NCBI GenBank assembly: GCA_963767375.1
Contig: CAVYDT010000008.1
Location: 2,428,641-2,460,640 of the forward strand
DNA length: 32,000 nucleotides
Source of the DNA: an uncultured Actinomycetota bacterium
GTDB lineage: Bacteria; Actinomycetota; Actinomycetes; Mycobacteriales; Mycobacteriaceae
Reading direction: 5' to 3'
Position numbers and translations under genes: made by a program
In this document: piece by piece, positions 11,426 to 32,000 of the stretch
How positions within the stretch are numbered: position 1 is the first letter of the stretch
Layout of the letters: the number at the start of each line of letters is the position of its first letter
Notes under the pieces: generated by a model
Databases searched by the model: none
Told to the model about the DNA's origin: nothing
Seen by the model: only the letters and a program-made list of their open reading frames with translations

Positions 11426-13153
11426 ATGTCATTTTTGCTCGTGGCGCCGGAAACCTTGGAGTCGGCCGCGGCCGATATCACGCAGATCGGTTCGACAGTG
11501 GGTGCCGGCAATCTGGCCGCAGCCATTCCGACGACTCAGTTGACCGCAGCGGCAGCCGACGAGGTGTCCGCGGCCATCGCGGCGGTGTTCGGCGCGCACG
11601 CCAAGGAGTACCAGGCGGCGGCGCTGGCGGCGACCTATCACGAGCAGTTTGCGCGCGGACTCAGTTCGGCAGCGGCGTCGTATGTGAGTGCAGAGGTCAG
11701 CATCGACACGACGCTGCAGGGCGTGGTGACTGCGGTGAATACGGCCGCTTCCAACGGTTTTCAGACGTTGGTCTACGGCCCGACACACACGGCCGGCGAA
11801 GCCTGGATCAACAGCTCGATCGGGCACGCACTCGACCCGATCATCAATGCGCCGACCGACGCGCTGTCGGGGCGCGATCTGATCGGCAACGGGGCGCCCG
11901 GAACGGCGACGGCCCCCAACGGCGGGCCCGGCGCTCTCCTGTTCGGTGATGGCGGGGCCGGCTACACCCAGACCAGCGGTCCATCTGCGACCGGTGGTAA
12001 CGGCGGCAATGCCGGACTGATCGGTAACGGCGGCGCCGGTGGTGGCGGGTTTGGCGGCGGGGCGGGCGGCGTCGGCGGCAACGGCGGGTTGATGGGCAAC
12101 GGCGGCGTGGGCGGTGCGGGCTCTGCAGGGGCTAACGGCGGCAACGGTGGCCAGGCGTTGTTAGTCGGCAACGGTGCCGCAGGCGGGGCCGCGGGTGCCG
12201 GCGGTGTCGCTGGAACTACCGGTTATCGCGGGCTGTTCATCGGCACCGGTGCCACAGCCTTGACCGGGACCGGCGGAGAGCATCAGTCGATCCAAATTGA
12301 CTTCGTGCGGCACGGGCAGACCAACAGCAACGCTTCGGACATCATCGACACGGCGATACCCGGTGCTCCACTCAATGCACTGGGCCTGCAACAGGCGAAC
12401 ACCATTGCGACTGTGCTGAATTCGCAGGGGCCCTTCGCCGCGATCTTCGACTCGCAGTTGATCAGGACGCAGCAGACCGCCCTGCCGTTGGAAACCCTCA
12501 CGGGGTTGACCGCGCAACCGTTGGCAGGGCTCAACGAGATCAATGCCGGCATTCTCGAGGGCATGCCGCAAATTCCCGCGGGGCTGCTCTACATCGTGGG
12601 CCCCATCGCGTGGACTCACGGATTGCCCCTCGTGGCGATGCTGGCCCCGGGCTCCACCAATCCCAACGGGGTGGTTTTCGACCAGGGCTTCGACAATGCG
12701 CTTGAAACGATGTACGACGCCGCGCTGGCGAACCCGGTCGTGGCGGCGAACGGCCAGATCACCGACGTGGCGTACTCGAGCGAACTTGCCATCGAGGTCG
12801 GGACGTTGATGTCCGTCAACAACCCCCAGCCCTTGCTGATGCTCACCCACCCGCTGCCCAACACCGGCGTTGTGGTGGTGGACGGCAGTCCACAGGGTGG
12901 CTGGACGATGGAAAGTTGGGATGGGACATCAATCCCGCAGGCGTCCTTGGGCACCTCGCTATTCGTCGATGTGCGTAACCTCATCACGGCGCCACAATTT
13001 GCGTCCTATGACATTTTGCAAGCCTTCCTCACCGGCAATCCAGCGACGATCGTGAACGCGGTCCGGTACGGCGTTGTGCAAGTAGGTATGGCCGCAATCG
13101 AATTCCCGTTCGCGGTCGCCCAGAGCCTGATCGATGCTGTGACTGGCTCCTGA
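11426..13153 (+). CDS. PE_PGRS family protein with a C-terminal histidine-phosphatase (phosphoglycerate-mutase-like) domain
   Basis: PE domain MSFLLVAPE...AAADEVSAAIAAVFGAHAKEYQ. Linker motif GRDLIGNGAPG. Gly-rich GGAGG/GGNGG repeats. These are followed by IDFVRHGQTNSN...DSQLIRTQQTA...NEINAGILEG (RHG catalytic His, branch-1 histidine phosphatase). The architecture matches that reported for M. tuberculosis PE_PGRS11. Confidence 0.9.
   Translation: MSFLLVAPETLESAAADITQIGSTVGAGNLAAAIPTTQLTAAAADEVSAAIAAVFGAHAKEYQAAALAATYHEQFARGLSSAAASYVSAEVSIDTTLQGVVTAVNTAASNGFQTLVYGPTHTAGEAWINSSIGHALDPIINAPTDALSGRDLIGNGAPGTATAPNGGPGALLFGDGGAGYTQTSGPSATGGNGGNAGLIGNGGAGGGGFGGGAGGVGGNGGLMGNGGVGGAGSAGANGGNGGQALLVGNGAAGGAAGAGGVAGTTGYRGLFIGTGATALTGTGGEHQSIQIDFVRHGQTNSNASDIIDTAIPGAPLNALGLQQANTIATVLNSQGPFAAIFDSQLIRTQQTALPLETLTGLTAQPLAGLNEINAGILEGMPQIPAGLLYIVGPIAWTHGLPLVAMLAPGSTNPNGVVFDQGFDNALETMYDAALANPVVAANGQITDVAYSSELAIEVGTLMSVNNPQPLLMLTHPLPNTGVVVVDGSPQGGWTMESWDGTSIPQASLGTSLFVDVRNLITAPQFASYDILQAFLTGNPATIVNAVRYGVVQVGMAAIEFPFAVAQSLIDAVTGS
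11885..12280 (+). repeat. PGRS low-complexity GGC/GGT-rich coding repeats
   Basis: Residues ~154-285 of the PE_PGRS protein are Gly-Gly-Ala/Asn repeats. The nucleotide sequence is iterated ggcggc(a/g)acggcgg-type units. Confidence 0.8.
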
Positions 13154-13577: not shown

Positions 13578-13977
13578 CACGCGCATAGGTGCGCTACCAC
13601 AGACTTCAATCGTGCTCGATCCAACGAGGACGGCGTTCGGATCTCGCTTTCGGCTAAACGTGCAATATCCGTGCGTTAGCCTCGGTTTGTGCTCACGTGT
13701 GCCCAAAATGTGCCTAGTCAGTTCTGTGATTGACAGCGTGTCATGCCATCGGGCCGCAACCGCATCCAGCAGCGATATCAGCTCTAGCGCAACAATATTG
13801 GCTCAGCAAGACGCTCAATCAATCGACGGATAGCGAAGGTCGATGCGAGGGCTTGGGATGACCCCAACTCGTACTGAGCAACGGGGTCGGTCTGGCCGGT
13901 TCCGGTCTCGAATCGTGATGCTGGCGTCTGATGGCAACATAATGTTTGTCAGTATTGACTCGACGGAAAGACACGCA

Positions 13978-14436
13978 ATGACCCGCCAAGAAACGACCGA
14001 CGCGACGCCGTCACCCCGCAACCAAGCTGAAGCTATAAAGGCGGTTGTGCGTCGCAACACAGAGCAAGTCCAGGGCCAAGGCGATTTTGCTCTGTTCGAG
14101 GAATTGTTCGACGACGATTTCGTCGACCACACTCCCCAGCCCGGCACGACACCCGACAAAGCCGGCGTTCGCGTCCTCTACAAACGGCTGCGCGAAGCGT
14201 TTCCCGACTTCCGGCCCGAGATCCATTGGCAGACAGTCGACGGCGACATCGTGACCACATTCAAGACGTATCACGGCACCCAGCGAGGTGACTTCCTCGG
14301 CATCGCCCCTAGTGGCAAGATCATCCAGTTCGAAACGGTCGACGCGATGCGAGTTCGCGACGGAAAGATCACCGACCACTGGGGGGTTGCCAATCTGTAC
14401 TCCGTCCTGCAACAACTAGGACAACTACCCAGCTGA
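13978..14436 (+). CDS. SnoaL-like ester cyclase / NTF2-fold protein
   Basis: FVDHTPQPG...LREAFPDFRPEIHWQTVDGDIVTTF..GTQRGDFLGIAPSGK...VDAMRVRDGKITDHWGV is the typical ester-cyclase pattern. The start is set at ATG 13978 after GGAAAG. Confidence 0.75.
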   Translation: MTRQETTDATPSPRNQAEAIKAVVRRNTEQVQGQGDFALFEELFDDDFVDHTPQPGTTPDKAGVRVLYKRLREAFPDFRPEIHWQTVDGDIVTTFKTYHGTQRGDFLGIAPSGKIIQFETVDAMRVRDGKITDHWGVANLYSVLQQLGQLPS

Positions 14437-14706
14437 CCCGAAAGCGGCGGGTCGTCGAAAGCGAACGCTAGGCGGGCGCGAACTGAGCCGCGCGAGTTAT
14501 GCGTTGATGTCACGCGAGCACCACTTCCCCAGCTTCTTGGAGTACGGCGAATACCCGTACGTGACCGCTGATGAGGTCAAGAAGGCGCTAACGCTTAAGG
14601 CAGCCTTCTCGACCATGCTCGACCAGATGCAGTAGCAAGCATCCAGGCGACCAGAAAGGTTCAGAGACAGCGGATTAGGCGAAAGCGTCCCCGTAATTAC
14701 AACGGC

Positions 14707-15840
14707 TCACCCATGGCCGGGGGCACACCGTTCGCTATCCGAGGCCAACTGCACGTGCGGACGGCCATGGGGCTGACCGTTCATCCACGTGGACCAGATC
14801 CCCACTGAGTACGGACCCTGCTGGCCGTTCTTCTCGTAGAAACCCTGGGGGTCGTAGACCTTGGCGTCCGGATATGGCCAGGGGCACGCCACCGAGGTGG
14901 CGGTCTTTGACCACTTGATGGCGGTGAACGCAGCCCCGTACACCAAGTAGGCGACGTTGACGATCACGAGCATCATCAGGAACGAGCCGAGGGCCGGTCG
15001 AGTCGGGAACAGGCGAACGCGCTGCGCTAACTTCTCGGCCACCGTGCGCCCGGTGTCGTCGCGGTAGACCAACACGCCCGCCGGGATCATCACGAGGGTG
15101 ACCAAACTGGATTCCCACAGCAGCGGGAATTGGTGTGGCGTGCCGGCGAAGATCGAGCCGAACGGAATCACGTGGGAGTAGATGTACATCCCGGTGCGTA
15201 CCAGCGTGACTTCCAGGATCATGTCGATGATGAACCCGACGATAAAGATCAGCACGCCAAGACTGATCAGGGGGTGCCGCCACGCGAACGAGTCGGTGGG
15301 CTGGCGCGCCTGAATGCGGCGCAGGATCCAAACCGCCGGGAAGTAGGGCCCGAATTGGAACATCACGTAGCCGATCACGACGAACGGCTCAATCGTGGGT
15401 GAGAGTGAGACCAGCGGCCACGATTCGGGAAAGTGCCAGAGCCGTGGGTTGTACACGGCGTATGGCGCCCAGTTCATGATCGGGTCCTGCCAGACGATGA
15501 TCGTGGTCACTAATCCCATCAGCAGCACGGGGTGGGCGCCATAACGACGCCAACCCCAGACGAAAGCCACGATGAGGCCGACGACGGCGACGATCGTAAA
15601 CAGCTGAAGGAGGCCGAGCCAATGTGCGTAGCCGAATAGTGGCGCCACCGGTCGCGGCGCCCCGGTCACTTCCGGATTACCCACCCGCGCATCGGGATAA
15701 TTGCGGGCGTTCCACGCGATCGCGACGACCGCGCTCACGCCGAGGATGGCGAAAAGCCACGCCCACGCGGACCCGGCTGTCGAACTTCTCGGCGCCGTTT
15801 CCGGCGTTGCGGATGGCGCTTTGGTTCTCTCGGTAGTCAT
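14707..15840 (-). CDS. Polytopic integral membrane protein (possibly AveC-like spirocyclase family; family call tentative)
   Basis: At least 7 hydrophobic spans. The start lies 3 nt after the upstream MpaB-like stop, which suggests an operon. The WQDPIMNW block resembles AveC-family annotations I recall, but I cannot verify this. Confidence 0.75.
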   Translation of the reverse strand: MTTERTKAPSATPETAPRSSTAGSAWAWLFAILGVSAVVAIAWNARNYPDARVGNPEVTGAPRPVAPLFGYAHWLGLLQLFTIVAVVGLIVAFVWGWRRYGAHPVLLMGLVTTIIVWQDPIMNWAPYAVYNPRLWHFPESWPLVSLSPTIEPFVVIGYVMFQFGPYFPAVWILRRIQARQPTDSFAWRHPLISLGVLIFIVGFIIDMILEVTLVRTGMYIYSHVIPFGSIFAGTPHQFPLLWESSLVTLVMIPAGVLVYRDDTGRTVAEKLAQRVRLFPTRPALGSFLMMLVIVNVAYLVYGAAFTAIKWSKTATSVACPWPYPDAKVYDPQGFYEKNGQQGPYSVGIWSTWMNGQPHGRPHVQLASDSERCAPGHG

Positions 15841-15843
15841 CTG

Positions 15844-16833
15844 CTATTCCTCACCTAATCGACCGCAAGTTTGAGTTACACCAGGTACGAACGACGCCAG
15901 TCCAATTCCTTTGTAGCGCGCGATGATTCGCTCGTACTCTCGTCTATTGCGTGCCAACGGTGTGTCCGTGAATCGACTGGGCAGCCACCGGTAGGCGAGC
16001 CGCAGCACTCTGGTAAACACTGTGAACTCGAGGTCGTGGCGGCGGGTCCAGGCCATCGGAACAATCTCGCGCACGCGCGGGTGCATGATGCCGAACCCCA
16101 GCACCGCCACAATATGTCCCGCCACTGGTCCGAGCAGCGTCCATAGCGGCGCTGTGATAGCCGGGATGGATGCAGGCGGTCGTGGCCGCAGGGTGGCGTC
16201 CATGACAATGTCGAGACTGGCTGTGTGCTTTAACTTTTCGGCGACCACCCGATCGTAGTACGCGCAGAGTTCGTCGTAGCTCTCCGCAAGCTGTCGTGCG
16301 CGGCCAGGCATCTGCAGGTCCTCGCACAGCGCCCGGAAACGGTCCCAGATCGCTTGGTTCTCCGAGGCGCCGAGCCGTTCACCCGCGATCGCGACGAAGG
16401 CTCCTCGGTGCATGAAGAAGATGCTGATCAGATTCCAGTTCCACGGTTCAGGGCTTAGGGCGCTGTAGCGCACCCCGTCGGGGGCAACGCCTTTCACGTC
16501 GCGGTGCAGTTCCACCAGCCGCTGCATTTCGCCGCGACGGTCAGCGCAATTGGCTAGAAACGCGAGTTGATCCGAGGCAGCGGTGCGGCGCGCCCGCCCG
16601 AGCGGGTCGTCGCGGATTCGGGCAGTGTCTACGAGTGCCGCCGAGACCGCCGGCAACATCATCTCATCGAACAGGGCAGGCGAGAAAAGGGCGAGGAACC
16701 GTGAACCAACCACGCGCTCGAATCGATCCGCCACAGATTCGACAGCGGTGTCCACAGATTCGGTTGACACATCTATTTGCTCCGCCGATGCGTCTAGCGA
16801 TTCGATGGACACGTGCAGCGATTCGGCCGACAT
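15844..16833 (-). CDS. MpaB/DUF2236-family oxygenase
   Basis: LHRDVKGVAPDGVRYSALSPEPWNWNLISIF is the characteristic DUF2236 block. The start is set at ATG 16833 after GGAGGAGG. The ORF-track start at 16935 lacks an RBS. Confidence 0.75.
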   Translation of the reverse strand: MSAESLHVSIESLDASAEQIDVSTESVDTAVESVADRFERVVGSRFLALFSPALFDEMMLPAVSAALVDTARIRDDPLGRARRTAASDQLAFLANCADRRGEMQRLVELHRDVKGVAPDGVRYSALSPEPWNWNLISIFFMHRGAFVAIAGERLGASENQAIWDRFRALCEDLQMPGRARQLAESYDELCAYYDRVVAEKLKHTASLDIVMDATLRPRPPASIPAITAPLWTLLGPVAGHIVAVLGFGIMHPRVREIVPMAWTRRHDLEFTVFTRVLRLAYRWLPSRFTDTPLARNRREYERIIARYKGIGLASFVPGVTQTCGRLGEE

Positions 16834-16853
16834 GGTGCCTCCTCCGCTCATAA

Positions 16854-16905
16854 TTCTGGTGCATATCGGCACCAAAAGGTATTGTGGTGTCAGACTGCAC
16901 CAGAA
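16854..16905. promoter_or_regulatory. Nested inverted repeats built on the TGGTGC half-site (probable TetR operator pair)
   Basis: TTCTGGTGCA (16854-63) and TGCACCAGAA (16896-905) are perfect 10-bp inverted arms. Inside the span are TGGTGCatatcgGCACCA (16857-74) and TGGTGtcagactgCACCA (16885-902). The site lies between the divergent TetR and MpaB-like genes. Confidence 0.5.
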
Positions 16906-16936
16906 ATATCGATTGGTCAAGGGGTTCTGAGGCACA

Positions 16937-21358: not shown

Positions 21359-21550
21359 CGCAGCTCCCCAGGTTTCAGACGGACACCTCAATTGTGCGCC
21401 CGTACGGTCAGCTGAGCACGTGTTTGGCCAGGACGGCGGGCTAGCAGCATCGCGACCACCATCGATGTCCTCATCAACCTGAAGACAGGCGCCTGGACCG
21501 TCCTCTGGGTCTGGCTATTTTTCGCTGGGGCCAGCGCACCCGCGCCACCG

Positions 21551-21650
21551 AGCACAATGCGCAAAAGCTCAAAATCGCCTGTTGCGTGGGCTATTGCGCA
21601 CAAGCGAGTCACGGCCGCTGCCAATCCCTAGCCTTCGAGCTCAACAGGTT
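21551..21650 (+). repeat. Locus-specific intergenic repeat module, copy A (shortest and most diverged)
   Basis: It shares the invariant CACAATGCGCAAAA block, ACAAGCGAG and TTCGAGCTCAAC with copies B-D. It lies upstream of the alpha/beta hydrolase gene. Confidence 0.65.
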
Positions 21651-22745: not shown

Positions 22746-22920
22746 ATGGCTGCGTGCGTATGAAAGCCGTTCGCGGCGCGCGATTCTGGGCGACCAGACG
22801 GCCGGAGACTCAGGCCAATTCGGACGGTCCGATTGATGTGCAACCCACGCTTTGATGCGGTCGTAGCGTCCGGTCGCTGACCGATCGAGGCAGCCGGTGC
22901 GCGCGTCGGTTCGGTCTGAC

Positions 22921-23070
22921 GTCGCGGGTGAACACAATGCGCAAAACTTCGAAATCGTCGCTTATTCCGACTATCGCCCACAAGAGCGACATCGCTGTAA
23001 GCCCGCCGTAAGTTCTAAATCAACGAATAACTGAACACACCGCACGATCGCAGCGGGAAAAGATTCACCC
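22921..23070 (+). repeat. Locus-specific intergenic repeat module, copy B
   Basis: GTCGCGGGTGAACACAATGCGCAAAACTTCGAAATCGTCGCTTATTCCGACTATCGCCCACAAGAGCGAC..., alignable with copies C and D over ~150 bp. Upstream of the condensation-domain gene. Confidence 0.8.
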
Positions 23071-23158
23071 GATCGCGACGAACCATTCGCGATTAGCCGT
23101 TCCGCCATTCTAACGCCGCGCAATAAACGTCGGCATCACACGGACAAGGATTAAGGAA

Positions 23159-24607
23159 ATGGTCGCACTGGGCAGCATCACCGGATGGCAGCCGGCAGAC
23201 GGTTTGGTTACGACTTGGATGGCCTCACCCGCGACACGCGAAGCGGCTCGGAATGCGCGGCGAAGCGATCTACCACCGAGCTACCAGAGGAGTCAGCACC
23301 TCCAGGCAGCCCACGAATACAAGGCGAGGGGCATGCAGCTACCACGCCTGATGGTCGTGGCGTGGGACATACCCGGCGTGTGTGACATTTCGGCAATGAC
23401 GGCAACGATCAACGCGCACGTGCGTCGTCACGATGCGTATCACGATTGGTTCCAAATCGAAAACGGCGCCTTTGTCCGTGGGACGATCGACAATCCCGAG
23501 GTCATCGAATTTGCCCCCACGAATTTCGGACATATGCACGCTGAACAAATACGCACGCACGCGTTATCGACGACGCCGGAGACACTTGAGTGGGACTGCT
23601 TCACATTTGGCATCGTCCAGCACACTGACTATTTCACGTTCTACGCCAGTGTCGACCATCTCCACATCGACGGTATGTCGGCCGGCCTGATCTTCGTCGA
23701 CATCCACTTGATGTACCAGGATCTGTCAAAGGCCGTGCATCGACCCAGCATGTTTCCGCAGGTCGCGAGCTACCGCAGCTACGCGGCACGGCAGCGCGAC
23801 AAGGTGACGAGCCTGACCCTGTCGTCGCCTGAGATCAGGGACTGGATCGAGTTCGCGCAGGACACCGACGGCGACTGGCCGAAATTCCCGCTACCGGTCG
23901 GTGATACGTGGACCAATAACAAAGGCGACTTCCTGACGGTCGACTTGTTGGACGATGTCGAGACGGAGTCTTTCGACACCGCATGCACCGAGGCCGGTGT
24001 TCGGTTCAGCGGGGGTGTTCTGGCGTGCGCAGCGCTGGCCGACCACGAGTTGACCGGCACCGAGACATACCACGGATTCACACCATCCGACACGCGGATG
24101 CCTGGCATCGACACGATGACTGTGGGTTGGTTCGCCAGCCTGATTCCGATCACGGTGCCGACGGGCATCTGCTCGTTTCCCGCGGCGGCCCGGGCTGCGC
24201 AGAAATCGTTCGATGACGCCAAACACCTTGCCAGCGTGCCGATTAAACGAGTCCTCGAGCTGGCGGCCCAGCACCGACTGAGGATCAATCCGCCATCGCC
24301 TCACGCAATGATGGTGTCCTTCATGGATTTACGTAAAATACCGCTCGCCGCATTATTCGGCGAGACCAATTTCGGTACCTACGGCGACAATTTGTCGCAC
24401 GGTGGGATCAACTTGTGGATCAACCGCCACGCTGACAAGACCACAGCGACGATCTCCTTTCCGGATAACCCCGTCGCGCGTGAGTCGGTGCATCGCTACA
24501 TCGCGGCGTTGACCCAGGCGTTCGCGCGCGTCAACACCACCTCGGACTGGGTGAGTGCGGTTGCAGACCATGCGAACTCGGGGCACGGCATACCTGTTCT
24601 CAGCTAG
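23159..24607 (+). CDS. Condensation-domain (HHxxxDG-type) acyltransferase, PapA/NRPS-C-like
   Basis: Active-site motif SVDHLHIDGMSAG. N-terminal PPSYQRSQHL resembles the C-domain C1 motif. 482 aa. AAGGATTAAGGA RBS. GC is visibly lower than in the neighbouring genes. Confidence 0.8.
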   Translation: MVALGSITGWQPADGLVTTWMASPATREAARNARRSDLPPSYQRSQHLQAAHEYKARGMQLPRLMVVAWDIPGVCDISAMTATINAHVRRHDAYHDWFQIENGAFVRGTIDNPEVIEFAPTNFGHMHAEQIRTHALSTTPETLEWDCFTFGIVQHTDYFTFYASVDHLHIDGMSAGLIFVDIHLMYQDLSKAVHRPSMFPQVASYRSYAARQRDKVTSLTLSSPEIRDWIEFAQDTDGDWPKFPLPVGDTWTNNKGDFLTVDLLDDVETESFDTACTEAGVRFSGGVLACAALADHELTGTETYHGFTPSDTRMPGIDTMTVGWFASLIPITVPTGICSFPAAARAAQKSFDDAKHLASVPIKRVLELAAQHRLRINPPSPHAMMVSFMDLRKIPLAALFGETNFGTYGDNLSHGGINLWINRHADKTTATISFPDNPVARESVHRYIAALTQAFARVNTTSDWVSAVADHANSGHGIPVLS

Positions 24608-24628: not shown

Positions 24629-25978
24629 ATGAGCAACATACTTGATCTGGTCGACCAGACCTTCTTTCGCGTCGAGCGGGCGGCCGCAGTCACCAACGTG
24701 ATTCAGTGTGTCTGGGTTTATGACCGCCCGGTCGGCATCGATGGACTGCGCCAGTTCCATCACCATCTGCAGCGGGGGCGGTTATCCCGTCGCATCGAGC
24801 GCTCACCGTTGCCGTTCGGCCGGCATCGCTGGGTCTCGCCTGGTGATCAGTCCGATCTCGAGGTCGCTACGCCTCGGCCGCGTGAAGAATTCGACGCCTG
24901 GCTGAACGAGCAGAGCAACACCTCCATCGATCCCGAGCACGGACCCGGGTGGCACCTCGCAGTGCTGCCCTTCATCGACGGCGGCGCGGGGGTGAGCTTG
25001 GTCGCCGCACATTGCCTGAGCGACGGCGTCGGGTTGTGCGAGGCGGTGGCGGACGCGGCTTGCGGCTCCGACAACGCAATGAGCTGGCCTGCTGCCGGGT
25101 CTCGCCCGCGCTGGCAGGCCCTGCGGGAGGACGCCCGCCAAACCGTGCGGGACATCCCCGAGATCGGCCGCGCCGTCGCCGCCGCAGCACGATTTGTCCG
25201 GCATAACCTCGGCCGTGCGGGATCTGCTACCCCGACACCTGCGCCGACCGCCGGCGCCGACGAGCGCATCACTGTCCCAACGGCAATGATCTTCGTGGAT
25301 GCCGACGAGTGGGACGCCCGTGCACACTCACTCGGAGGGACCAGCAACACCCTTCTCGAGGCATTGGCCGCCCGCCTCGCACAGCGAGTCGGACGGGTCA
25401 CTGCAGACGGCTCAGTCACCTTGACGATGCCCATCAACCAGCGCACCGCCGGCGATACCCGCGCCAACGCCATCACGAACGTCGACATCACGGTCGACCC
25501 CGCACCCGCAACGACGGATCTGCGCGAGATCCGGGCCGCAACCAAGCAAGCACTGATCCGCTCTCAGGAGCAGCCCGACGAACGGTGGACGCTGCTGCCT
25601 CTCGTTCCGCTGGTGCCTGAGGGGCTGGGCCGGCGATGGGTCGGCGCGGCCACCAACAGTGCGATCAGCGTGGGCGCATCCAACGTCGGTGTGGTCAACC
25701 CGGCCGTCAACCGGCCAGACGGTACGGACGCCGACCATTTCGCCATGAAGTCGCTCGGCCTGGGTATGACCACGACGACGATGCACCAGCTCGGCGGGCT
25801 GCTGTCTTTGCTCTCCGGAAGGGCGCACGGACGGGTCTTCGTCTCGGTCGTTGCGTATCAGCCGGACCGCCCCAACTCAAACGACCAACTGCAACAGCGC
25901 CTTTCGAGCGTTCTGAGCGAATTCTCGCTCACCGCCACGATCGGCTGGCCATGCAATGAGCCGGTGGGGGCGCGGTAG
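24629..25978 (+). CDS. WS/DGAT-like CoA-dependent acyltransferase, tandem paralog 1
   Basis: Motif VAAHCLSDGVG (single-His HxxxDG). N-terminal LDLVDQTFF (compare LSPLDAxFL of WS/DGAT). C-terminal ASNVG...VSVVAYQ block (compare the NVPGP region). 449 aa, 21 nt after the previous stop. Confidence 0.75.
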   Translation: MSNILDLVDQTFFRVERAAAVTNVIQCVWVYDRPVGIDGLRQFHHHLQRGRLSRRIERSPLPFGRHRWVSPGDQSDLEVATPRPREEFDAWLNEQSNTSIDPEHGPGWHLAVLPFIDGGAGVSLVAAHCLSDGVGLCEAVADAACGSDNAMSWPAAGSRPRWQALREDARQTVRDIPEIGRAVAAAARFVRHNLGRAGSATPTPAPTAGADERITVPTAMIFVDADEWDARAHSLGGTSNTLLEALAARLAQRVGRVTADGSVTLTMPINQRTAGDTRANAITNVDITVDPAPATTDLREIRAATKQALIRSQEQPDERWTLLPLVPLVPEGLGRRWVGAATNSAISVGASNVGVVNPAVNRPDGTDADHFAMKSLGLGMTTTTMHQLGGLLSLLSGRAHGRVFVSVVAYQPDRPNSNDQLQQRLSSVLSEFSLTATIGWPCNEPVGAR

Positions 25979-26002
25979 GCATCACCCGCTGATGACCCTG
26001 GT

Positions 26003-26156
26003 GTCGCGGGTAAGCACAATGCGCAAAACTACGAAATCGTCGCTTATTCCGACTATCGCTTACAAACGCGACAGAGGGGCAAGCGGCGCGGTAATTTCGA
26101 GTTCAACAAACAACAGAAATACGTCGCAAGATCTACTGCGGGAACAGAATTCACGC
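26003..26156 (+). repeat. Locus-specific intergenic repeat module, copy C
   Basis: GTCGCGgGTAAGC (26003-15) and GCTTACaaaCGCGAC (26058-72) are inverted arms around CACAATGCGCAAAACTACGAAATCGTCGCTTATTCCGACTATC. The copy lies between paralogs 1 and 2. Confidence 0.8.
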
Positions 26157-26267
26157 TAGCGCCAAAAGTCATTCACGAACATCCGTTTTTTGCCATGGAT
26201 GACATTGCCCACCAAGCGAATTCGGATGAGCAGTACCCATAGGCAACTAACAAGAAAGGCGTTGGAA

Positions 26268-27623
26268 ATGAGCAACGTACTTGATCTGATCGACCAGACC
26301 TTCTTTCGCCTCGAGGGGGCGGCCGGAGTCGGGCAGTCTGTCTGGGTATATAACCGCCCGGTCGACATCGACGGACTGCGCCGGTTCCATCACCACCTTC
26401 AGCGGGGGCGGTTATCCCGCCGAATCGAGCGCTCGCCCTTGCCGTTCGGGCGCGATCGCTGGGTGTCGCCCAGCGATCAGTCGGACCTCGAGATCGCGGC
26501 GCCCCGGCCGCGCGAAGAATTCGACGGCTGGCTCAACGAGCAGGCCAACATCCCCCTCGATGCCGAGCACGGACCCGGCTGGCACCTCGCGGTGCTCCCC
26601 TTCACCGACGGCGGCGCGGGGGTGAGCCTAGTCCTCACGCATTGCATCACGGACGGCGGCGGAGGGGCCTTGGCCGTGGTGGAAGCGGCTTTCGGCTACG
26701 ATCACCCACTCAACTGGCCTGCTGCCGGGTCACGCCCGCGGTGGCGAGCGCTGCGCGAGGATGCCCGCCAAACCGTGCGCGACATCCCCGCAATCCGCCG
26801 CGCCGTCGTCGCCGCAGCACGATTCGCCCGGGCTAACCGCGGCGGCACCGTATCAGCCGCTTCGCCCGTTTCAAAGGCACCTGCGCCGAGCGCCGGAGCC
26901 GACGAGATCATCACGCTCCCAACCGCAACGATCTTTCTCGATGCCGAGGAGTGGGACACCCGCGCGCACGCACTCGGAGGGACCAGCAACACCCTGTTCG
27001 CGGGATTGGCGGCCCGCCTCGCCCAGCGACTGGGACGAGTCGCCGCAGACGGCTCGGTCACCTTGGCGGTACCCGTCAACGAGCGCACTGCGGACGATAC
27101 CCGCGCCAACGCGATCACGATTCTCGACATCACGGTCGACCCTGCACCCGTGACGACGGACCTGCGCCAGATCCGGGCCGCAACAAAGCAAGCGCTGATC
27201 CGACACCGGGAGGTGCCCGACGAACGGCAGACACTGCTGCCCCTGGTTCCCCTGCTGCCGCGGCGGCTCGCCAGGCGAATGGTCGCCACGGCCACCGGCG
27301 GCGCGACCAACATCGCTGTCCCATCCAACCTCGGCACGGCCCCCCCGGCCGTCAACCAACCAGACGGCACAGACGCCGACTACGTCGCCGTGCGGTTTCT
27401 CTACCCGGGTATGACCAAGGCGATGGTGCACCAGCTCGGCGGGGTGCTGTCTTTGCACTCGGGAAGGGTGGACCGACAGATCTTCGTCTCGGTCGTTGCG
27501 TACCAGCCGGACCGCCCCAATTCGAATGACGACTTGCAACAGCGCATTTCGACCGTTCTGCGCGAGTTCTCGCTCACCGCTACGACGGGCTGGCCGTGCA
27601 ATGAGCCAATGGCGGCGGCGTAG
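26268..27623 (+). CDS. WS/DGAT-like CoA-dependent acyltransferase, tandem paralog 2
   Basis: Motif LTHCITDGGGG. The start is set at ATG 26268 (MSNVLDLIDQTFF), matching the other paralogs and following an AAAGG RBS. The ORF-track start at 26190 adds 26 non-homologous residues. Confidence 0.75.
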   Translation: MSNVLDLIDQTFFRLEGAAGVGQSVWVYNRPVDIDGLRRFHHHLQRGRLSRRIERSPLPFGRDRWVSPSDQSDLEIAAPRPREEFDGWLNEQANIPLDAEHGPGWHLAVLPFTDGGAGVSLVLTHCITDGGGGALAVVEAAFGYDHPLNWPAAGSRPRWRALREDARQTVRDIPAIRRAVVAAARFARANRGGTVSAASPVSKAPAPSAGADEIITLPTATIFLDAEEWDTRAHALGGTSNTLFAGLAARLAQRLGRVAADGSVTLAVPVNERTADDTRANAITILDITVDPAPVTTDLRQIRAATKQALIRHREVPDERQTLLPLVPLLPRRLARRMVATATGGATNIAVPSNLGTAPPAVNQPDGTDADYVAVRFLYPGMTKAMVHQLGGVLSLHSGRVDRQIFVSVVAYQPDRPNSNDDLQQRISTVLREFSLTATTGWPCNEPMAAA

Positions 27624-27659
27624 TAGGCGTGGGCAAGCAACAAGAAAAGGAGCTTAGAA

Positions 27660-29093
27660 ATGAGCAACGTACTCGATCTGGTCGACCAGACCTTCTTTCT
27701 CGGCGAGCAAGCGACCGGCGTCACCATGGTGCTGCAGTGCGTGTGGGTCTATGACCGCGCGATCGATACCGACGGTCTGCGGCGGTTCCATCACCATCTT
27801 CAGCGGGGCCGGTTATCCCGCCGCATCGAACGCTCGCCCTTGCCGTTCGGCCGCCATCGCTGGGTCTCGCCCAGCGATCAGCCCGACCTCGAGATCGTCG
27901 CGACGCCTCGGCCGCGCGCAGAATTCGACGCCTGGCTCAGCGAGCAGGCCAACACCACCCTGGACGCCGAGCACGGACCCGAATGGCACCTCGCGGTGCT
28001 CCCCTTCACCGACGGCGGCGCGGGAGTGAGCTTGGTCATCTCGCATTGCCTCACCGACGCCGTCGGGTTGTGCGAGGCGTTGACGGACGCGGCTTCCGGC
28101 CGCCACGACCCCATCAGCTGGCCCACTTCCGGCTCGCGCCGGCGGTGGCGAGCACTCCGCGAGGACGCCCGCCAAACCGCGCGCGACCTCCCCGGTATCG
28201 GCGGAGCCGTCGTCGCCGCAGCACGATTGGCCCGACGTAACCGCGGCAGCGCGGGATCAACCGCCCTGCTAAACGCCGGGTCACCTGCACCGCTCGCCGG
28301 AGCGCATGAACGCATCACCCTCCCATCGGCAACGATCTTTGTCGATGCCGATGAGTGGGACGCCCGCGCACATTCACTGGGAGGGACCAGCAACACCCTT
28401 CTCGCGGGATTGGCGGGCCGCCTCGCCCAGCGAGTGGGCCGGGTCACCGCAGACGGCTCAGTCACCTTGGGTATGCCCGTCAACCTGCGCACCGCCGGCG
28501 ATACCCGCGCCAACGCAGTCACCAATGTCGACATCACAGTGGACCCCGAACCCGCGGCGATAGACCTGCGCGGGATGCGGGCCGCAACAAAGCAAGCGCT
28601 GATCCGCTCTCAGGAGGCGCCCGACGAACGGTTGGCGCTGCTACCCGTCGTTCCTCTGTTGCCGCAGTGGCTGGTCAAGCGAATGGTCAACCTGGCCACT
28701 AGCAGTGCGACCAGCGTCGTCTCATCCAACTTCGGTGTGGTCAACCCGGCCGTCTACCGGCCAGACGGAACAGACGCCGACCACTTCGCGATAAAGGGTT
28801 CCAACTTGGGTGTGACCAAGGCGATCATGCACCGCACCGGCGGAATCATGGCGTTGCTCTCGGGAAGATCGGATCGACAGGTCTTCGTTTCGGTCCTTGC
28901 GTATCAGCCGGACCGCACCAACTCGAATGACACTCTGCGGAAAGACCTTTCGAGCGCTCTGAGCGACTTCTCGCTCACCGCCACGATCGGCTGGCCATGC
29001 CCTGGGCCAGTGAGAAAAGCGCGCGTCGCGACCACCAGGGAACAAGTAAATGCGATTGCAGACCAAGTGGATTCGTCAAGCCGTATGGCCTGA
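27660..29093 (+). CDS. WS/DGAT-like CoA-dependent acyltransferase, tandem paralog 3 (C-terminal ~25-aa extension)
   Basis: Motif ISHCLTDAVG (Gly to Ala after the Asp). 477 aa. It starts 36 nt after paralog 2. A unique tail KARVATTREQVNAIADQVDSSSRMA follows the shared WPCPGPV end. Confidence 0.75.
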   Translation: MSNVLDLVDQTFFLGEQATGVTMVLQCVWVYDRAIDTDGLRRFHHHLQRGRLSRRIERSPLPFGRHRWVSPSDQPDLEIVATPRPRAEFDAWLSEQANTTLDAEHGPEWHLAVLPFTDGGAGVSLVISHCLTDAVGLCEALTDAASGRHDPISWPTSGSRRRWRALREDARQTARDLPGIGGAVVAAARLARRNRGSAGSTALLNAGSPAPLAGAHERITLPSATIFVDADEWDARAHSLGGTSNTLLAGLAGRLAQRVGRVTADGSVTLGMPVNLRTAGDTRANAVTNVDITVDPEPAAIDLRGMRAATKQALIRSQEAPDERLALLPVVPLLPQWLVKRMVNLATSSATSVVSSNFGVVNPAVYRPDGTDADHFAIKGSNLGVTKAIMHRTGGIMALLSGRSDRQVFVSVLAYQPDRTNSNDTLRKDLSSALSDFSLTATIGWPCPGPVRKARVATTREQVNAIADQVDSSSRMA

Positions 29094-29130
29094 CAGCCCA
29101 ACCAAGTGACAAGGAAAGGACCTTAAGAAA

Positions 29131-30513
29131 ATGAACAACGTACTCGATCTGATCGACCAAAGCGCGTTTCTCGCCGAGCGAGCGACCGGAGCCACCAACG
29201 TGATTCAGTGTGTCTGGGTGTACAACCGTGCGATCGACATCGACGGTCTGCGCCAGTTCCATCACCATCTTCAGCGGGGGCGGTTGTCCCGCCGCATCGA
29301 ACGCTCACCCTTGCCGTTCGGACGCCATCGCTGGGTCTCGCCCAGCGGTCAGTCCGACCTGGAGATCGTCGCCACGCCTCGGCCGCGTGAAGAATTCGAT
29401 GCTTGGCTCAGCGAGCAGGCCAACACCCCCCTGGATTCCGAGCACGGACCCGGATGGCACCTGGCGGTGCTCCCGTTCACCGACGGCGGCGCGGGGCTGA
29501 GTTTCGTTATCTCACATTCCCTCATCGACGGCGTCGGGCTGTGCGAGGCGTTGGCGGACGCGGCTTCCGGCCGCCACGACCCCATCAGCTGGCCTGCTGC
29601 CGGGTCACGCCGGCGCTGGCAAGCACGGCGGGAGGACGCCCGCCAAACCGCGCGCGACATCCCCGCCATCGGCCGCGCCGTCGTTGCCGTGGCACGATTC
29701 GCAAGGCGTAGCCGCGGTGCTGACGGATCTGGCACCCAGCTGCCTAGCGCGCCGCGTTCGCCGATCGTCGGAGCTCACCAGCTCGTCGCTCTGAATAAGG
29801 CAATGATCTTCGTCGACGCCGACGAGTGGGACGCCCGCGCACACTCACTCGGGGGGACCAGCAACGCGCTGCTCGCGGGATTGGCGGCCCGTCTCGCCCA
29901 GCGAGTAGGACGGGTCGCCGGGGACGGCTTCGCCACCCTGGAGATACCCGTTAACGAGCGCGCCGCCGGCGATACCCGCGCCAATGCGATGACAAGTGTC
30001 GACATCACGGTCGACCCCGAACCCGCGGCGACGGACCTGCGCGAGATCCGGGCCGCAATCAAGCAAGCGCTGATCCGCTATCAGGAGGCCGGCGACGAAC
30101 GGCGGGCAATGCTGCCCCTCGCTCCTCTGCTGCCGCAGTGGGTGGTTAGGCGAATGGTCAGCGTGGCCCTCGGCGGCGCGACGACCAGCGGATCATCCCA
30201 CCTCGGTGCGATCAACCCGGGCGTCAACCGGCCAGACGGCACAGACGCCGACTACTTCGCCGGAAACTCTTTCTTCCTGGGGGCGACCGGGACCGGGGCG
30301 CCCGTGGCGACGATAGCCCGCACCGGCGGGCTGCTGGGGTTGCTCTCGGGAAGAGTGCACGGACGGGTCTTCCTCTCGGTCGTTGCGTATCAGCTGGCCC
30401 GTTCCGACTCGAATGACGACTTGCGGGAGCATATTTCGAGCGTTCTGAGTGACTTCTCGCTCACCGCCACGATCGGCTGGCCATGCCCTGAGCCAGTGGG
30501 CGGGGCGCGGTAG
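29131..30513 (+). CDS. WS/DGAT-like CoA-dependent acyltransferase, tandem paralog 4
   Basis: Motif ISHSLIDGVG. 460 aa. It starts 37 nt after paralog 3, and the RBS and start context are conserved (AAGGAAAGG...AAAATGAACAACGTACTCGATCTG). Confidence 0.75.
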   Translation: MNNVLDLIDQSAFLAERATGATNVIQCVWVYNRAIDIDGLRQFHHHLQRGRLSRRIERSPLPFGRHRWVSPSGQSDLEIVATPRPREEFDAWLSEQANTPLDSEHGPGWHLAVLPFTDGGAGLSFVISHSLIDGVGLCEALADAASGRHDPISWPAAGSRRRWQARREDARQTARDIPAIGRAVVAVARFARRSRGADGSGTQLPSAPRSPIVGAHQLVALNKAMIFVDADEWDARAHSLGGTSNALLAGLAARLAQRVGRVAGDGFATLEIPVNERAAGDTRANAMTSVDITVDPEPAATDLREIRAAIKQALIRYQEAGDERRAMLPLAPLLPQWVVRRMVSVALGGATTSGSSHLGAINPGVNRPDGTDADYFAGNSFFLGATGTGAPVATIARTGGLLGLLSGRVHGRVFLSVVAYQLARSDSNDDLREHISSVLSDFSLTATIGWPCPEPVGGAR

Positions 30514-30524
30514 ACGCCCCCCGC

Positions 30525-30686
30525 CTGGCGGGTGAGCACAATGCGCAAAATCGTGGAATCGGCGCTAACTCCGACTATCGCTTACAAGCGCGACACGGGT
30601 GCAAGCGGCGCCGTAAGTTCGGTCTCGACCAGACAACTCGCTAGGCGTCCGTACGTCGCCCGGTTCGCCAAGGGGCGGGGAATCCT
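30525..30686 (+). repeat. Locus-specific intergenic repeat module, copy D
   Basis: CTGGCGGGTGAGCACAATGCGCAAAATCGTGGAATCGGCGCTAACTCCGACTATCGCTTACAAGCGCGAC..., alignable to copy C over ~160 bp. It lies between paralog 4 and mmpL. Confidence 0.8.
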
Positions 30687-30742
30687 GGCTTTGCTGCCGC
30701 TCCTGCTTACCCAGGCTTGACACACCAATGAAGGGCTTCACC

Positions 30743-32000
30743 ATGTTCAAAAAGTCCGCCGCGCCCAAGACCTCTGCCGCTGCCAAGACGCGCATCGGTG
30801 CGTTTTCGGTGTTGGGTCGCTTCGTCGTGCGTGCGCCCTGGCTCATCATCGCCGCCTGGATCGCTGTGGTCGCCGTGCTGGCCGTGGCCCTCCCCCCACT
30901 GACGAAGGTGGTCGAAAGCCATCCACTACAGCCGCTGCCGCCCAAAGCTATGGCGGCGGCCGAGCAGATGGCCAAGGATTTCGGTGAATCCGCCCAGAAT
31001 GTCCTGATTGTCGTACTCACCGACAATCGGGGTCTGCAACCTGCTGATGAGGACGCCTACCGCAAGCTCGCCGATACGTTACGCAGCAAGACCAACGATG
31101 TGACCGGCGTGCAGGACATCGCTACCACACCCGCACTGCGTCCATTGATGGTCAGCGCGGACAACAAGGCGTTTTACATGGCGGTGGCCCTGAGGGCGCC
31201 TATCGGATCCCCTGAGTCCTCGCAGGCCTACCAACGGATCACAGAAATCGCCAAACGCTCCACCGCGGGCTCCTCGCTGACCGCGGAGGTGACGGGACAG
31301 GCTGCCATGGCCGGCGACCTGTCGATCGTCTCCGCCCGCGACATGCACATCATCGAGATGGTCACCGCATTGTTCGTGCTGATCATCCTGCTGGTGGTCT
31401 ACCGGCGACCTGTGACCGTGTTGCTGCTGTTGATCACCGTCGGAATTTCGGTCGCGTCGGCCCAGGGCGTGGTGTCCGGGCTAGCCCTGCTCGGACTCGG
31501 GGTGTCCACGCTGACGATCGTGTTGATGACGGCGATGATCGTGGGCGCCGGCACCGACTATGCCGTCTTCTTGATCAGCCGCTACCACGAGTACATCCGG
31601 TCCGGCATGGACTCCGACCTGGCCGTACAAAAAGCACTGAGCTCCATCGGCGAGGTCATCGCGGCGTCGGCGGCCACCGTTGCCGTCACCTTTCTCGGCA
31701 TGGTCTTCACCCGCATGCCCGCGTTCACGAGTATTGGTCCGGCGCTCGCGGTTTCGATCGGGGTCGCATTTCTCGCCGCCGTCACGCTGTTGCCCGCCCT
31801 ACTCGTGCTCGCCGGTCGACGCGGATGGGTGACGCCGCGACCGGCGCTCACCGGCCGCCTGTGGCAACGGTCTGCCGTTCAGCTGGTTCGCCGGCCCAAA
31901 GCGCATCTGCTGGTTAGTCTGTCGGTGTTGATCGCGCTGGCCGGCTGCGCGGCCTTCCTCCAGCCCACCTTCAACGACCGCCTGCAATTGTCGCAGTCAG
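30743..32000 (+). CDS. mmpL: MmpL-family RND lipid transporter (5' part; continues beyond the window)
   Basis: The frame stays open to the window end. N-terminal TM, periplasmic domain, then TM bundle with the hallmark MMPL block IVGAGTDYAVFLISRYHEYIRSG. The start is ATG 30743 (after AAGGG) or the in-frame ATG 30728. No mmpS lies upstream. Confidence 0.9.
   Translation, partial: MFKKSAAPKTSAAAKTRIGAFSVLGRFVVRAPWLIIAAWIAVVAVLAVALPPLTKVVESHPLQPLPPKAMAAAEQMAKDFGESAQNVLIVVLTDNRGLQPADEDAYRKLADTLRSKTNDVTGVQDIATTPALRPLMVSADNKAFYMAVALRAPIGSPESSQAYQRITEIAKRSTAGSSLTAEVTGQAAMAGDLSIVSARDMHIIEMVTALFVLIILLVVYRRPVTVLLLLITVGISVASAQGVVSGLALLGLGVSTLTIVLMTAMIVGAGTDYAVFLISRYHEYIRSGMDSDLAVQKALSSIGEVIAASAATVAVTFLGMVFTRMPAFTSIGPALAVSIGVAFLAAVTLLPALLVLAGRRGWVTPRPALTGRLWQRSAVQLVRRPKAHLLVSLSVLIALAGCAAFLQPTFNDRLQLSQS

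Follow-up and report, generated by a model that had tools for sequence, protein, structure and literature searches.

A tandem array of WS/DGAT-like acyltransferase genes between PapA2-like and MmpL genes in Mycobacterium: positional classes and a candidate pathway for an exported lipid

Loci that combine a PapA acyltransferase with an MmpL transporter make surface lipids that shape the envelope properties of mycobacteria and their interaction with the host, as in the case of sulfolipid-1 (SL-1), diacyltrehalose and polyacyltrehalose (DAT/PAT) and phthiocerol dimycocerosate (PDIM). In the SL-1 pathway of M. tuberculosis, roles have been assigned to PapA2, PapA1, Chp1 and MmpL8 (PMC3318749). PAT carries five acyl groups (PMC2676004, PMC4183827), the extra ones being added through transesterification by Chp2 at the periplasmic face (PMC4183827). 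Here we describe a PapA-MmpL locus of a different composition, encoded in a 32,000-nucleotide stretch of DNA from an uncultured member of the Mycobacteriaceae (assembly GCA_963767375.1, contig CAVYDT010000008.1; the whole stretch is referred to as the window). In this locus a PapA2-like gene is followed by four tandem acyltransferase genes, termed P1 to P4, and then by an MmpL gene. The reading that we favour, with rather more confidence than doubt, is that the array genes encode subfunctionalised acyltransferases, and that loci of this layout (a PapA2-like gene, one to five array copies and MmpL) build a polyacylated, possibly trehalose-based, exported lipid by a biochemistry presumed from homology and gene order.

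The array, its family and its locus

The four array genes lie in a window with a GC content of about 64%, which together with a PE-PGRS gene encoded there identifies the source as a Mycobacterium of the slow-growing type. In the following list, WS/DGAT stands for wax ester synthase/diacylglycerol acyltransferase and ORF for open reading frame.

24629..25978, + strand: P1, acyltransferase, WS/DGAT-like, positional class 1; 449 aa, motif AHCLSDG (from the ORF)
26268..27623, + strand: P2, acyltransferase, WS/DGAT-like, class 2; 451 aa, motif THCITDGGGG (from the ORF and alignment)
27660..29093, + strand: P3, acyltransferase, WS/DGAT-like, of a separate lineage named P3*; 477 aa, motif SHCLTDA
29131..30513, + strand: P4, acyltransferase, WS/DGAT-like, class 5, last array position; 460 aa, motif SHSLIDG

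The original prediction, made from the sequence of the window, was of four tandem genes that align end to end, with no premature stops and no loss of the catalytic His and Asp. This was confirmed by the ORFs and by alignment: the reading frames of P1-P4 contain no internal stops, a repeat finder reported four in-register copies across them, and neither His128 nor Asp132 of the HxxxD motif varies among P1-P4 and 44 relatives (48 aligned sequences). Amino-acid identity among the four proteins is 66-74% over all pairs (70-74% relative to P1), and nucleotide identity among the genes is 79-82%. The spacers measure 21 nt between the PapA2-like gene and P1, 289 nt between P1 and P2, 36 nt between P2 and P3 and 37 nt between P3 and P4. 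The two short gaps had been predicted together with a conserved start context, and both were found as described, every copy having in common a ribosome-binding site and start of the form ..AAGGA..ATGA(G/A)CAAC(G/A)TACT(T/C)GATCTG. The homologous start of P2 is the ATG at 26268, the longest P2 ORF beginning with a TTG at 26190.

Compared with the canonical HHxxxDG motif, P1-P4 have A, T or S in place of the first His, and the second His and the Asp are invariant. Ala stands for the motif Gly in P3, as it does in the majority of class-1 copies. P2 has a 3-aa deletion near residue 23, and its post-motif segment reads THCITDGGGGALAVVEAAFGYDHPLNWP, with GGGGALA where the others have a GVGLCEA-type block. 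The conflicting sequence blocks from which a mosaic had been proposed are all present in the alignment, namely SRPRW/QTVRD versus SRRRW/QTARD, DPAP.TTD versus DPEPAA, CNEP versus CP.P, and LLPQW, as is the difference between HGRVF and DRQxF. The sharing of IQCVWVY and GVGLCEA by P1, P3 and P4 holds only approximately, as P3 reads LQCVWVY and AVGLCEA.

Curated models were used to place the array in a protein family. The Pfam model WS_DGAT_cat (PF03007) matched P4 with 25.0 bits against a cut-off of 23.6 bits (E=1.9e-5), and gave no match to P1, P2 or P3 at E≤0.01. TIGR02946 matched P1, P3 and P4 with 45.4, 55.5 and 49.8 bits (5e-12 to 4e-15), against a cut-off of 309.95 bits, and did not match P2. 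The model of the C-terminal domain, WS_DGAT_C (PF06974), was absent both from the Pfam results of P1-P4 and from the precomputed Pfam matches of 120 relatives. The AlphaFold2 (AF2) model of P1 is of low confidence (predicted local distance difference test, pLDDT, 57; predicted template modelling score, pTM, 0.61), and only the fold class was taken from structure comparison. Foldseek with this model gave 88 matches in the Protein Data Bank (PDB) at E≤1e-3, of which the top 50 listed were all condensation-fold enzymes. The matches include condensation (C), cyclisation (Cy) and epimerisation (E) domains of non-ribosomal peptide synthetases, the WS/DGAT structures 6CHJ and 7NXG, PapA2 (6AEF) and TRI3, while a sequence search of the PDB with a profile of the paralogs returned matches to the motif region only. 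In the model, His128 stands at the end of a strand (123-130) that is followed by a helix (135-144), which would place the class-specific block of P2 on the helix beside the catalytic loop. We conclude that P1-P4 are HxxxD acyltransferases of the condensation/chloramphenicol acetyltransferase (CAT) superfamily, which are remote to the WS/DGAT enzymes and are not members of that family by curated criteria.

The genes around the array are given below. L074 is a metagenome contig of a sister strain, which is 99.6% identical to the window over 9.9 kb and agrees with it in the four array copies and in the length of the P1-P2 spacer (289 nt).

23159..24607, + strand: PapA2-like acyltransferase of the condensation-domain family; Pfam Condensation, 2.2e-13; motif DHLHIDG (HxxxDG)
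30743..32000, + strand: 5' part of an MmpL lipid transporter of the resistance-nodulation-division (RND) type, running off the window; assigned by tblastn to the MmpL of L074
21693..22745, + strand: alpha/beta-fold hydrolase, 350 aa from the start used in the sister strain (L074); Pfam Abhydrolase_1, 6.9e-24

The product of 23159..24607 matched M. tuberculosis PapA2 (6AEF) with 433 bits (E=1.3e-128), residues 5-458 aligning with 5-456. The MmpL fragment is 99.8% identical (tblastn) to residues 1-419 of the 1052-aa MmpL of L074, which itself has two PF03176 (MMPL) matches and scores 853.5 bits with TIGR00833, just below the cut-off of 874.7 bits. A survey in which one genome per species was scanned gave 73 related loci, nearly all of them in Mycobacterium and one in Nocardia. 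Of these loci, 57 of 73 have a PapA homolog as the gene directly upstream of the array and 43 have an MmpL gene after the last copy. The association with the hydrolase is variable, this gene being near the array in only some of the loci. The arrays hold one to five copies, with five in 14 loci and four in 7, which agrees with the prediction that copy number would be prone to change. This variation is between species; copy number is stable between the window and L074. The carriers are slow-growing and environmental Mycobacterium, including the M. colombiense/Mycobacterium avium complex (MAC) group and many metagenome-assembled genomes from soil, and the one Nocardia.

In several genomes (L023, L037, L043, L045, L048, L052, L061 and L070) PapA genes and array copies alternate in the order PapA-copy-PapA-copy, and these alternating modules suggest that a PapA and WS/DGAT-like pair is the basic functional unit. 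In Nocardia sp. NPDC046763 (L013, 7178-12943) a hydrolase, a PapA, one copy and MmpL are found together with the intergenic element described below. The module thus reaches beyond Mycobacterium, by transfer or by old ancestry.

Between its genes the locus also carries a repeated element, about 110-160 nt in length. Its three strong copies form a direct repeat (D6) in gene orientation, and a fourth is weak.

22916..23073, + strand: element copy a, 86 nt upstream of the PapA-like gene; nhmmer score 162
25997..26158, + strand: element copy b, within the 289-nt P1-P2 spacer and 110 nt upstream of P2; score 166
30521..30645, + strand: element copy c, 98 nt upstream of the MmpL gene; score 127
21550..21617, + strand: weak fourth copy, about 76 nt upstream of the hydrolase start; nhmmer score 27

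The nhmmer profile, which was built from the three strong window copies, found no copies elsewhere in the window, and gave 117 matches in 48 of 75 sequences, nearly all oriented like the genes and in matching positions relative to them. L074 has a matching weak copy at the same place before the hydrolase, and in other genomes the element occurs in the long spacers after array copy 1 and/or copy 2. Its conserved blocks are AGCACAATGCGCAAAAC, AATCGTCGCT, CGACTATCGC, ACAAGCGCGACA and CGTAAGTTCG. The element looks like a shared promoter/operator that would delimit the units [PapA-P1], [P2-P3-P4] and [MmpL], with GCGACA as a possible -35 and TAAGTT as its possible -10 partner. A structured RNA was considered for the element and rejected, as RNAalifold gave -0.5 kcal/mol on 76 copies with no consensus structure and there was no match in Rfam. 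An inverted repeat, ATCGTCG N7 CGACTAT, was also discarded, since one arm varies without compensation. Convergent to MmpL and right after it, a two-component system is encoded in the three genomes examined (L074, 14788-17144; L075, 14336-16686; L076, 14542-18700). M. colombiense and the sister strain have a DcuS/DcuR-like sCache kinase with a response regulator, and Mycobacterium sp. OTB74 has a different system, of the NarL type. Such a system would be a candidate for the regulator acting on the repeated element.

The gene order and the element bear on the alternative that the array encodes ordinary storage-lipid enzymes (Tgs-like triacylglycerol or wax-ester synthases) lying beside unrelated PapA and MmpL genes, the copies being isoenzymes for dosage or for particular conditions. 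WS/DGAT families are the only named families that were matched, some database sources name relatives of the array proteins 'diacylglycerol O-acyltransferase / wax synthase', and many Tgs paralogs are present in mycobacteria. However, the scores are far below the cut-offs (45-55 versus 310 bits for TIGR02946), WS_DGAT_C is missing and P2 matches neither model. Furthermore, the synteny with PapA and MmpL is conserved across species and in Nocardia, PapA-copy pairs have been duplicated as units in several genomes, and the same intergenic element precedes PapA, internal units of the array and MmpL. We consider a storage-lipid role improbable, if marginally less so than the two alternatives discussed below.

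Positional classes, gene conversion and selection

A neighbour-joining tree of 166 copies clustered them by array position across genomes and not by genome, in six lineages that are each monophyletic in 99-100% of bootstraps. P1 groups with the first-position copies of other genomes at 78-88% identity (class 1, bootstrap 100%), P2 falls in class 2 (bootstrap 100%), and P4 groups with last-position copies at 78-85% identity (class 5, bootstrap 99%). Positional orthologs are 73-95% identical, as compared with 66-74% for the window paralogs. P3, together with L007_3, L001_2 and L002_4, makes up the P3* lineage (bootstrap 100%), which is equidistant from classes 3 and 4 of the five-copy arrays (0.344 and 0.347, versus 0.18-0.20 within a class). 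The possibility that P3 is a class-3/class-4 hybrid produced by an unequal-crossover deletion was rejected on account of this equidistance and of segment preferences that are weak and in the wrong order, the 5' end being class-4-like and the 3' end class-3-like, the opposite of what a deletion product would have.

Viewed against these classes, the particularities of single copies take on a different meaning. The altered segment of P2 after the catalytic motif is present as predicted, but is not peculiar to this genome, as the signature DG.GG..LA.VEAA.GYD and the 3-aa deletion occur in the second-position copies of all genomes examined. Similarly, P3 does have both the change of DG to DA and the long tail ascribed to it, but D-A is not specific to this genome, as it is what class-1 copies usually have in most genomes and is also found in all P3* copies, and the length of the tail varies between strains. 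The alternation of HGRVF with (D/H)(R/Q)QxF tracks class across genomes. A strict screen for class-diagnostic residues was left with 15 columns only and was uninformative.

Each copy's lineage predates the divergence of many Mycobacterium species and has since been kept under purifying selection, and the array evolves by birth and death, that is by gain, loss and replacement of copies, and not by ongoing gene conversion. In L002 (3503-6864) the place of class 1 is taken by two copies from a different deep lineage, duplicated recently, and frame-disrupted, apparently decaying array copies are found in L003, L009 and L033; the replacement and the decaying copies both fit birth-and-death evolution. 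The predicted tandem duplication followed by functional divergence is supported, the copies being ancient positional classes that have been retained across many species.

The original prediction had gone further and invoked gene conversion. In this model, repeated conversion or unequal exchange inside the genome would keep the paralogs mosaic and so account for the conflicting blocks. We find this very unlikely. The informative nucleotide sites of P1-P4, which number 37, 21 and 17 over the three quartet topologies, are indeed spatially clustered (PHI-like p 0.008-0.03; runs p=0.007). Sites of the 13|24 pattern are in excess at nt 716-1107 (maximum-chi-square, p=0.002), and P3 and P4 have a 34-nt run of matching polymorphic sites (GENECONV-like, p=0.007 uncorrected). 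Class relations also shift by segment, with {1,2} at 82% for residues 110-220 and {1,P3*} at 50% for residues 220-330. However, the clustering of nucleotide sites is weak and is not specific to the window lineage, the alternative class groupings in segment trees have bootstraps of 50-66% only, and the GENECONV-like signal becomes marginal once corrected for six pairs. The conflicting amino-acid sites (18, 6 and 8) are interspersed and not clustered (runs p=0.76). Long tracts are absent, the longest exact matches between paralogs being 24-41 nt, and the sliding-window maximum, 93% over 120 nt, falls in a region that is conserved family-wide.

Comparison across genomes settled most of the question. 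In the candidate tracts, pairs within the genome are no more alike than pairs between genomes: P3 and P4 of the window are 89.8% identical, versus 87-89% for cross-genome pairs, and P3 and P1 of the window are 83.3% identical, versus 85.8% for L002_4 and P1 of the window. Four-point sums of dS (synonymous divergence) against the closest five-copy array (L012) were 0.739 and 0.738, giving no sign of homogenisation within the genome, and the conflicting blocks are largely class-level signatures that are shared by orthologs of other genomes. Silent sites had at first resembled concerted evolution, with a dS of 0.34-0.37 between window paralogs and of 0.40-0.67 to orthologs of distant species. This interpretation was rejected because distances are nearly additive with lineage-specific rates, because GC3 (GC content at third codon positions) lies between 0.76 and 0.84 in different genomes, and because the closest five-copy genome gives no such signal. 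Thus, with no long identical tracts, no excess similarity within the genome and signatures that belong to classes, an origin of the mosaic by gene conversion is not supported. The predicted collapse of the array in short-read assemblies is also unlikely, given an identity of about 80% and exact matches of ≤41 nt. Recent paralog conversion is largely refuted, and an old and limited exchange between paralogs, mainly involving the P3* lineage, may have taken place. The locus provides a clean example of an apparent paralog mosaic which dissolves once orthologous arrays are added.

Comparison with the sister strain revealed a diverged tract at 28770-30740 of the window (9700-11600 of L074), where divergence is about ten times that of the flanks (13-31 substitutions per kb, versus 0.7-7 elsewhere). 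The tract takes in the 3' end of P3, the whole of P4 and the element in the P4-MmpL spacer, and the tail of P3 is 18 residues shorter in L074, through an in-frame indel of roughly 57 nt. A paralog donor was considered for this recent tract and rejected, as most of the differing sites have one allele that matches all three paralogs and there is no run from a single donor. It looks like an allelic import by homologous recombination and not like paralog conversion.

The ratio of nonsynonymous to synonymous divergence (dN/dS) over the whole gene is 0.27-0.49 for orthologs and 0.43-0.61 for paralogs. By segment the values were as follows.

First ~120 codons (windows 1-60, 31-90 and 61-120): paralog dN/dS 0.14-0.29, ortholog dN/dS 0.21-0.26
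Codons 91-180 (catalytic loop and following helix): paralog dN/dS 0.60-0.67, ortholog dN/dS 0.32-0.33
Codons 301-390 (windows 301-360 and 331-390): paralog dN/dS 0.99-1.36, ortholog dN/dS 0.40-0.68

Paralogs thus differ most in two places, the stretch that follows the catalytic motif and codons 301-390, which supports the predicted subfunctionalisation: divergence between classes followed by conservation within each class is the pattern expected of subfunctionalised enzymes. A last alternative, that one or more copies (mainly P2 and P3) are catalytically dead and persist as scaffolds or regulators of the active ones, has as small a chance as the recurrent conversion dismissed above. In its favour, the first His of HHxxxDG is missing in all copies, P2 has GGGGALA for GVGLCEA and is matched by no WS/DGAT model, P3 has Ala for the motif Gly, and dN/dS between paralogs is on the high side. 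Against it, the catalytic His and Asp do not vary in 48 of 48 aligned members, the P2 block is conserved across genomes under purifying selection (as the ortholog dN/dS indicates), D-A is common in class 1 of most genomes and so has been tolerated in the long term, and frameshifts and stops are absent here, truly degraded copies being those of L003, L009 and L033.

Other genes of the window

Away from the locus, the window encodes at 11426-13153 a PE-PGRS protein fused to a histidine-phosphatase (His_Phos_1) domain. At 13843-16935, a SnoaL-like cyclase, an AveC-like spirocyclase-family protein and an MpaB/Lcp-type oxygenase are encoded beside TetR regulators. This is a small secondary-metabolism-like gene group, which is unrelated to the acyltransferase array.

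A proposed pathway and its relation to known systems

In the pathway that we propose for the locus, a polar head group would first be acylated by the PapA-like enzyme, whose homology to PapA2 makes trehalose, or a derivative of it, the most plausible acceptor. The array paralogs would then add further acyl groups from acyl-CoA, each of them specialised by position or by donor, and their specificity may be set by the variable helix after the catalytic loop and by the variable C-lobe segment (codons ~301-390). MmpL would export the product. The repeated element ahead of PapA-P1, P2-P3-P4 and MmpL, and more weakly ahead of the hydrolase, probably co-regulates these units.

Several findings weigh against this proposal. 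P1-P3 are below the Pfam threshold for WS/DGAT enzymes, the C-terminal WS/DGAT domain was not detected, and the structural model has a pLDDT of 57. The array proteins also lack the first His of the canonical HHxxxDG motif, having A, T or S at this place. Nucleotide site patterns are mildly clustered (p≈0.01), and class relations shift between segments. There is no polyketide synthase (PKS), FadD or sulfotransferase gene within the conserved core, so that both the acyl donors and the head group are conjectural, and a scan with the sigma-70 consensus called no promoter in the element. Finally, a literature search found no description of this locus or family.

A more specific version of the proposal is tentative, and we would sooner expect parts of it to fail than all of it to hold. 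According to this, the locus would represent an undescribed pathway of environmental and nontuberculous mycobacteria, in which up to five specialised WS/DGAT-like enzymes, each tied to its own array position in tens of species, acylate in succession a polyacylated, possibly trehalose-based product after the PapA2-like step, replacing the Chp-type transesterification of SL-1 and PAT, under the control of a locus-specific promoter/operator that is perhaps read by the DcuS/DcuR-like system. The array is ordinary as an evolutionary phenomenon, yet it points to a candidate lipid pathway that is uncharacterised and widely conserved. If the paralogs are position-specific acylases, they constitute a natural experiment in acyltransferase regiospecificity, in which the two hypervariable segments point to the likely specificity sites. 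For annotation, the "hypothetical proteins" of ~450 aa beside PapA and MmpL are a distinct family that is poorly caught by current WS/DGAT models.

Among known systems, the WS/DGAT enzymes (Acinetobacter AtfA/WSD1 7NXG, Marinobacter 6CHJ and mycobacterial Tgs1-4) resemble the array proteins in their two-lobed condensation-type fold, which is predicted for the array from the model, in a catalytic His-x3-Asp that closes a strand and is followed by a helix, and in the weak but specific matches to PF03007 and TIGR02946. In contrast to these enzymes, the array proteins score far under the family thresholds, have no detected WS_DGAT_C and have the first motif His replaced, and their genomic setting is that of an export lipid and not of a storage lipid. 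With arrays under concerted evolution the window paralogs have in common a head-to-tail arrangement, nucleotide identity of ~80% and conserved start contexts. However, copies of the window type group by position across species, and show neither long identical tracts nor an excess of similarity within the genome.

The M. tuberculosis SL-1 locus (PapA2, PapA1, MmpL8, Chp1 and Sap) is similar in that an enzyme resembling PapA2 adjoins MmpL, and in the proposed pathway, as in that of SL-1, a polar head group would be acylated stepwise before export. It differs in that the core of the array locus has no homologs of Pks2, FadD23, Stf0, Chp1 or Sap, and the later acylations would here fall to one to five cytosolic WS/DGAT-like paralogs instead of a Chp-type transesterase. 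The M. tuberculosis DAT/PAT locus (PapA3, MmpL10, Chp2, Pks3/4 and FadD21) likewise combines PapA with MmpL and has a polyacylated product, the five acyl groups of which may be comparable to a PapA and four to five paralogs. In contrast, no dedicated PKS is linked to the array locus, and tandem HxxxD acyltransferases are encoded where PAT uses Chp2. The array locus would thus represent a different enzymatic solution in a PapA-MmpL setting, a positionally conserved series of divergent WS/DGAT-like acyltransferases.

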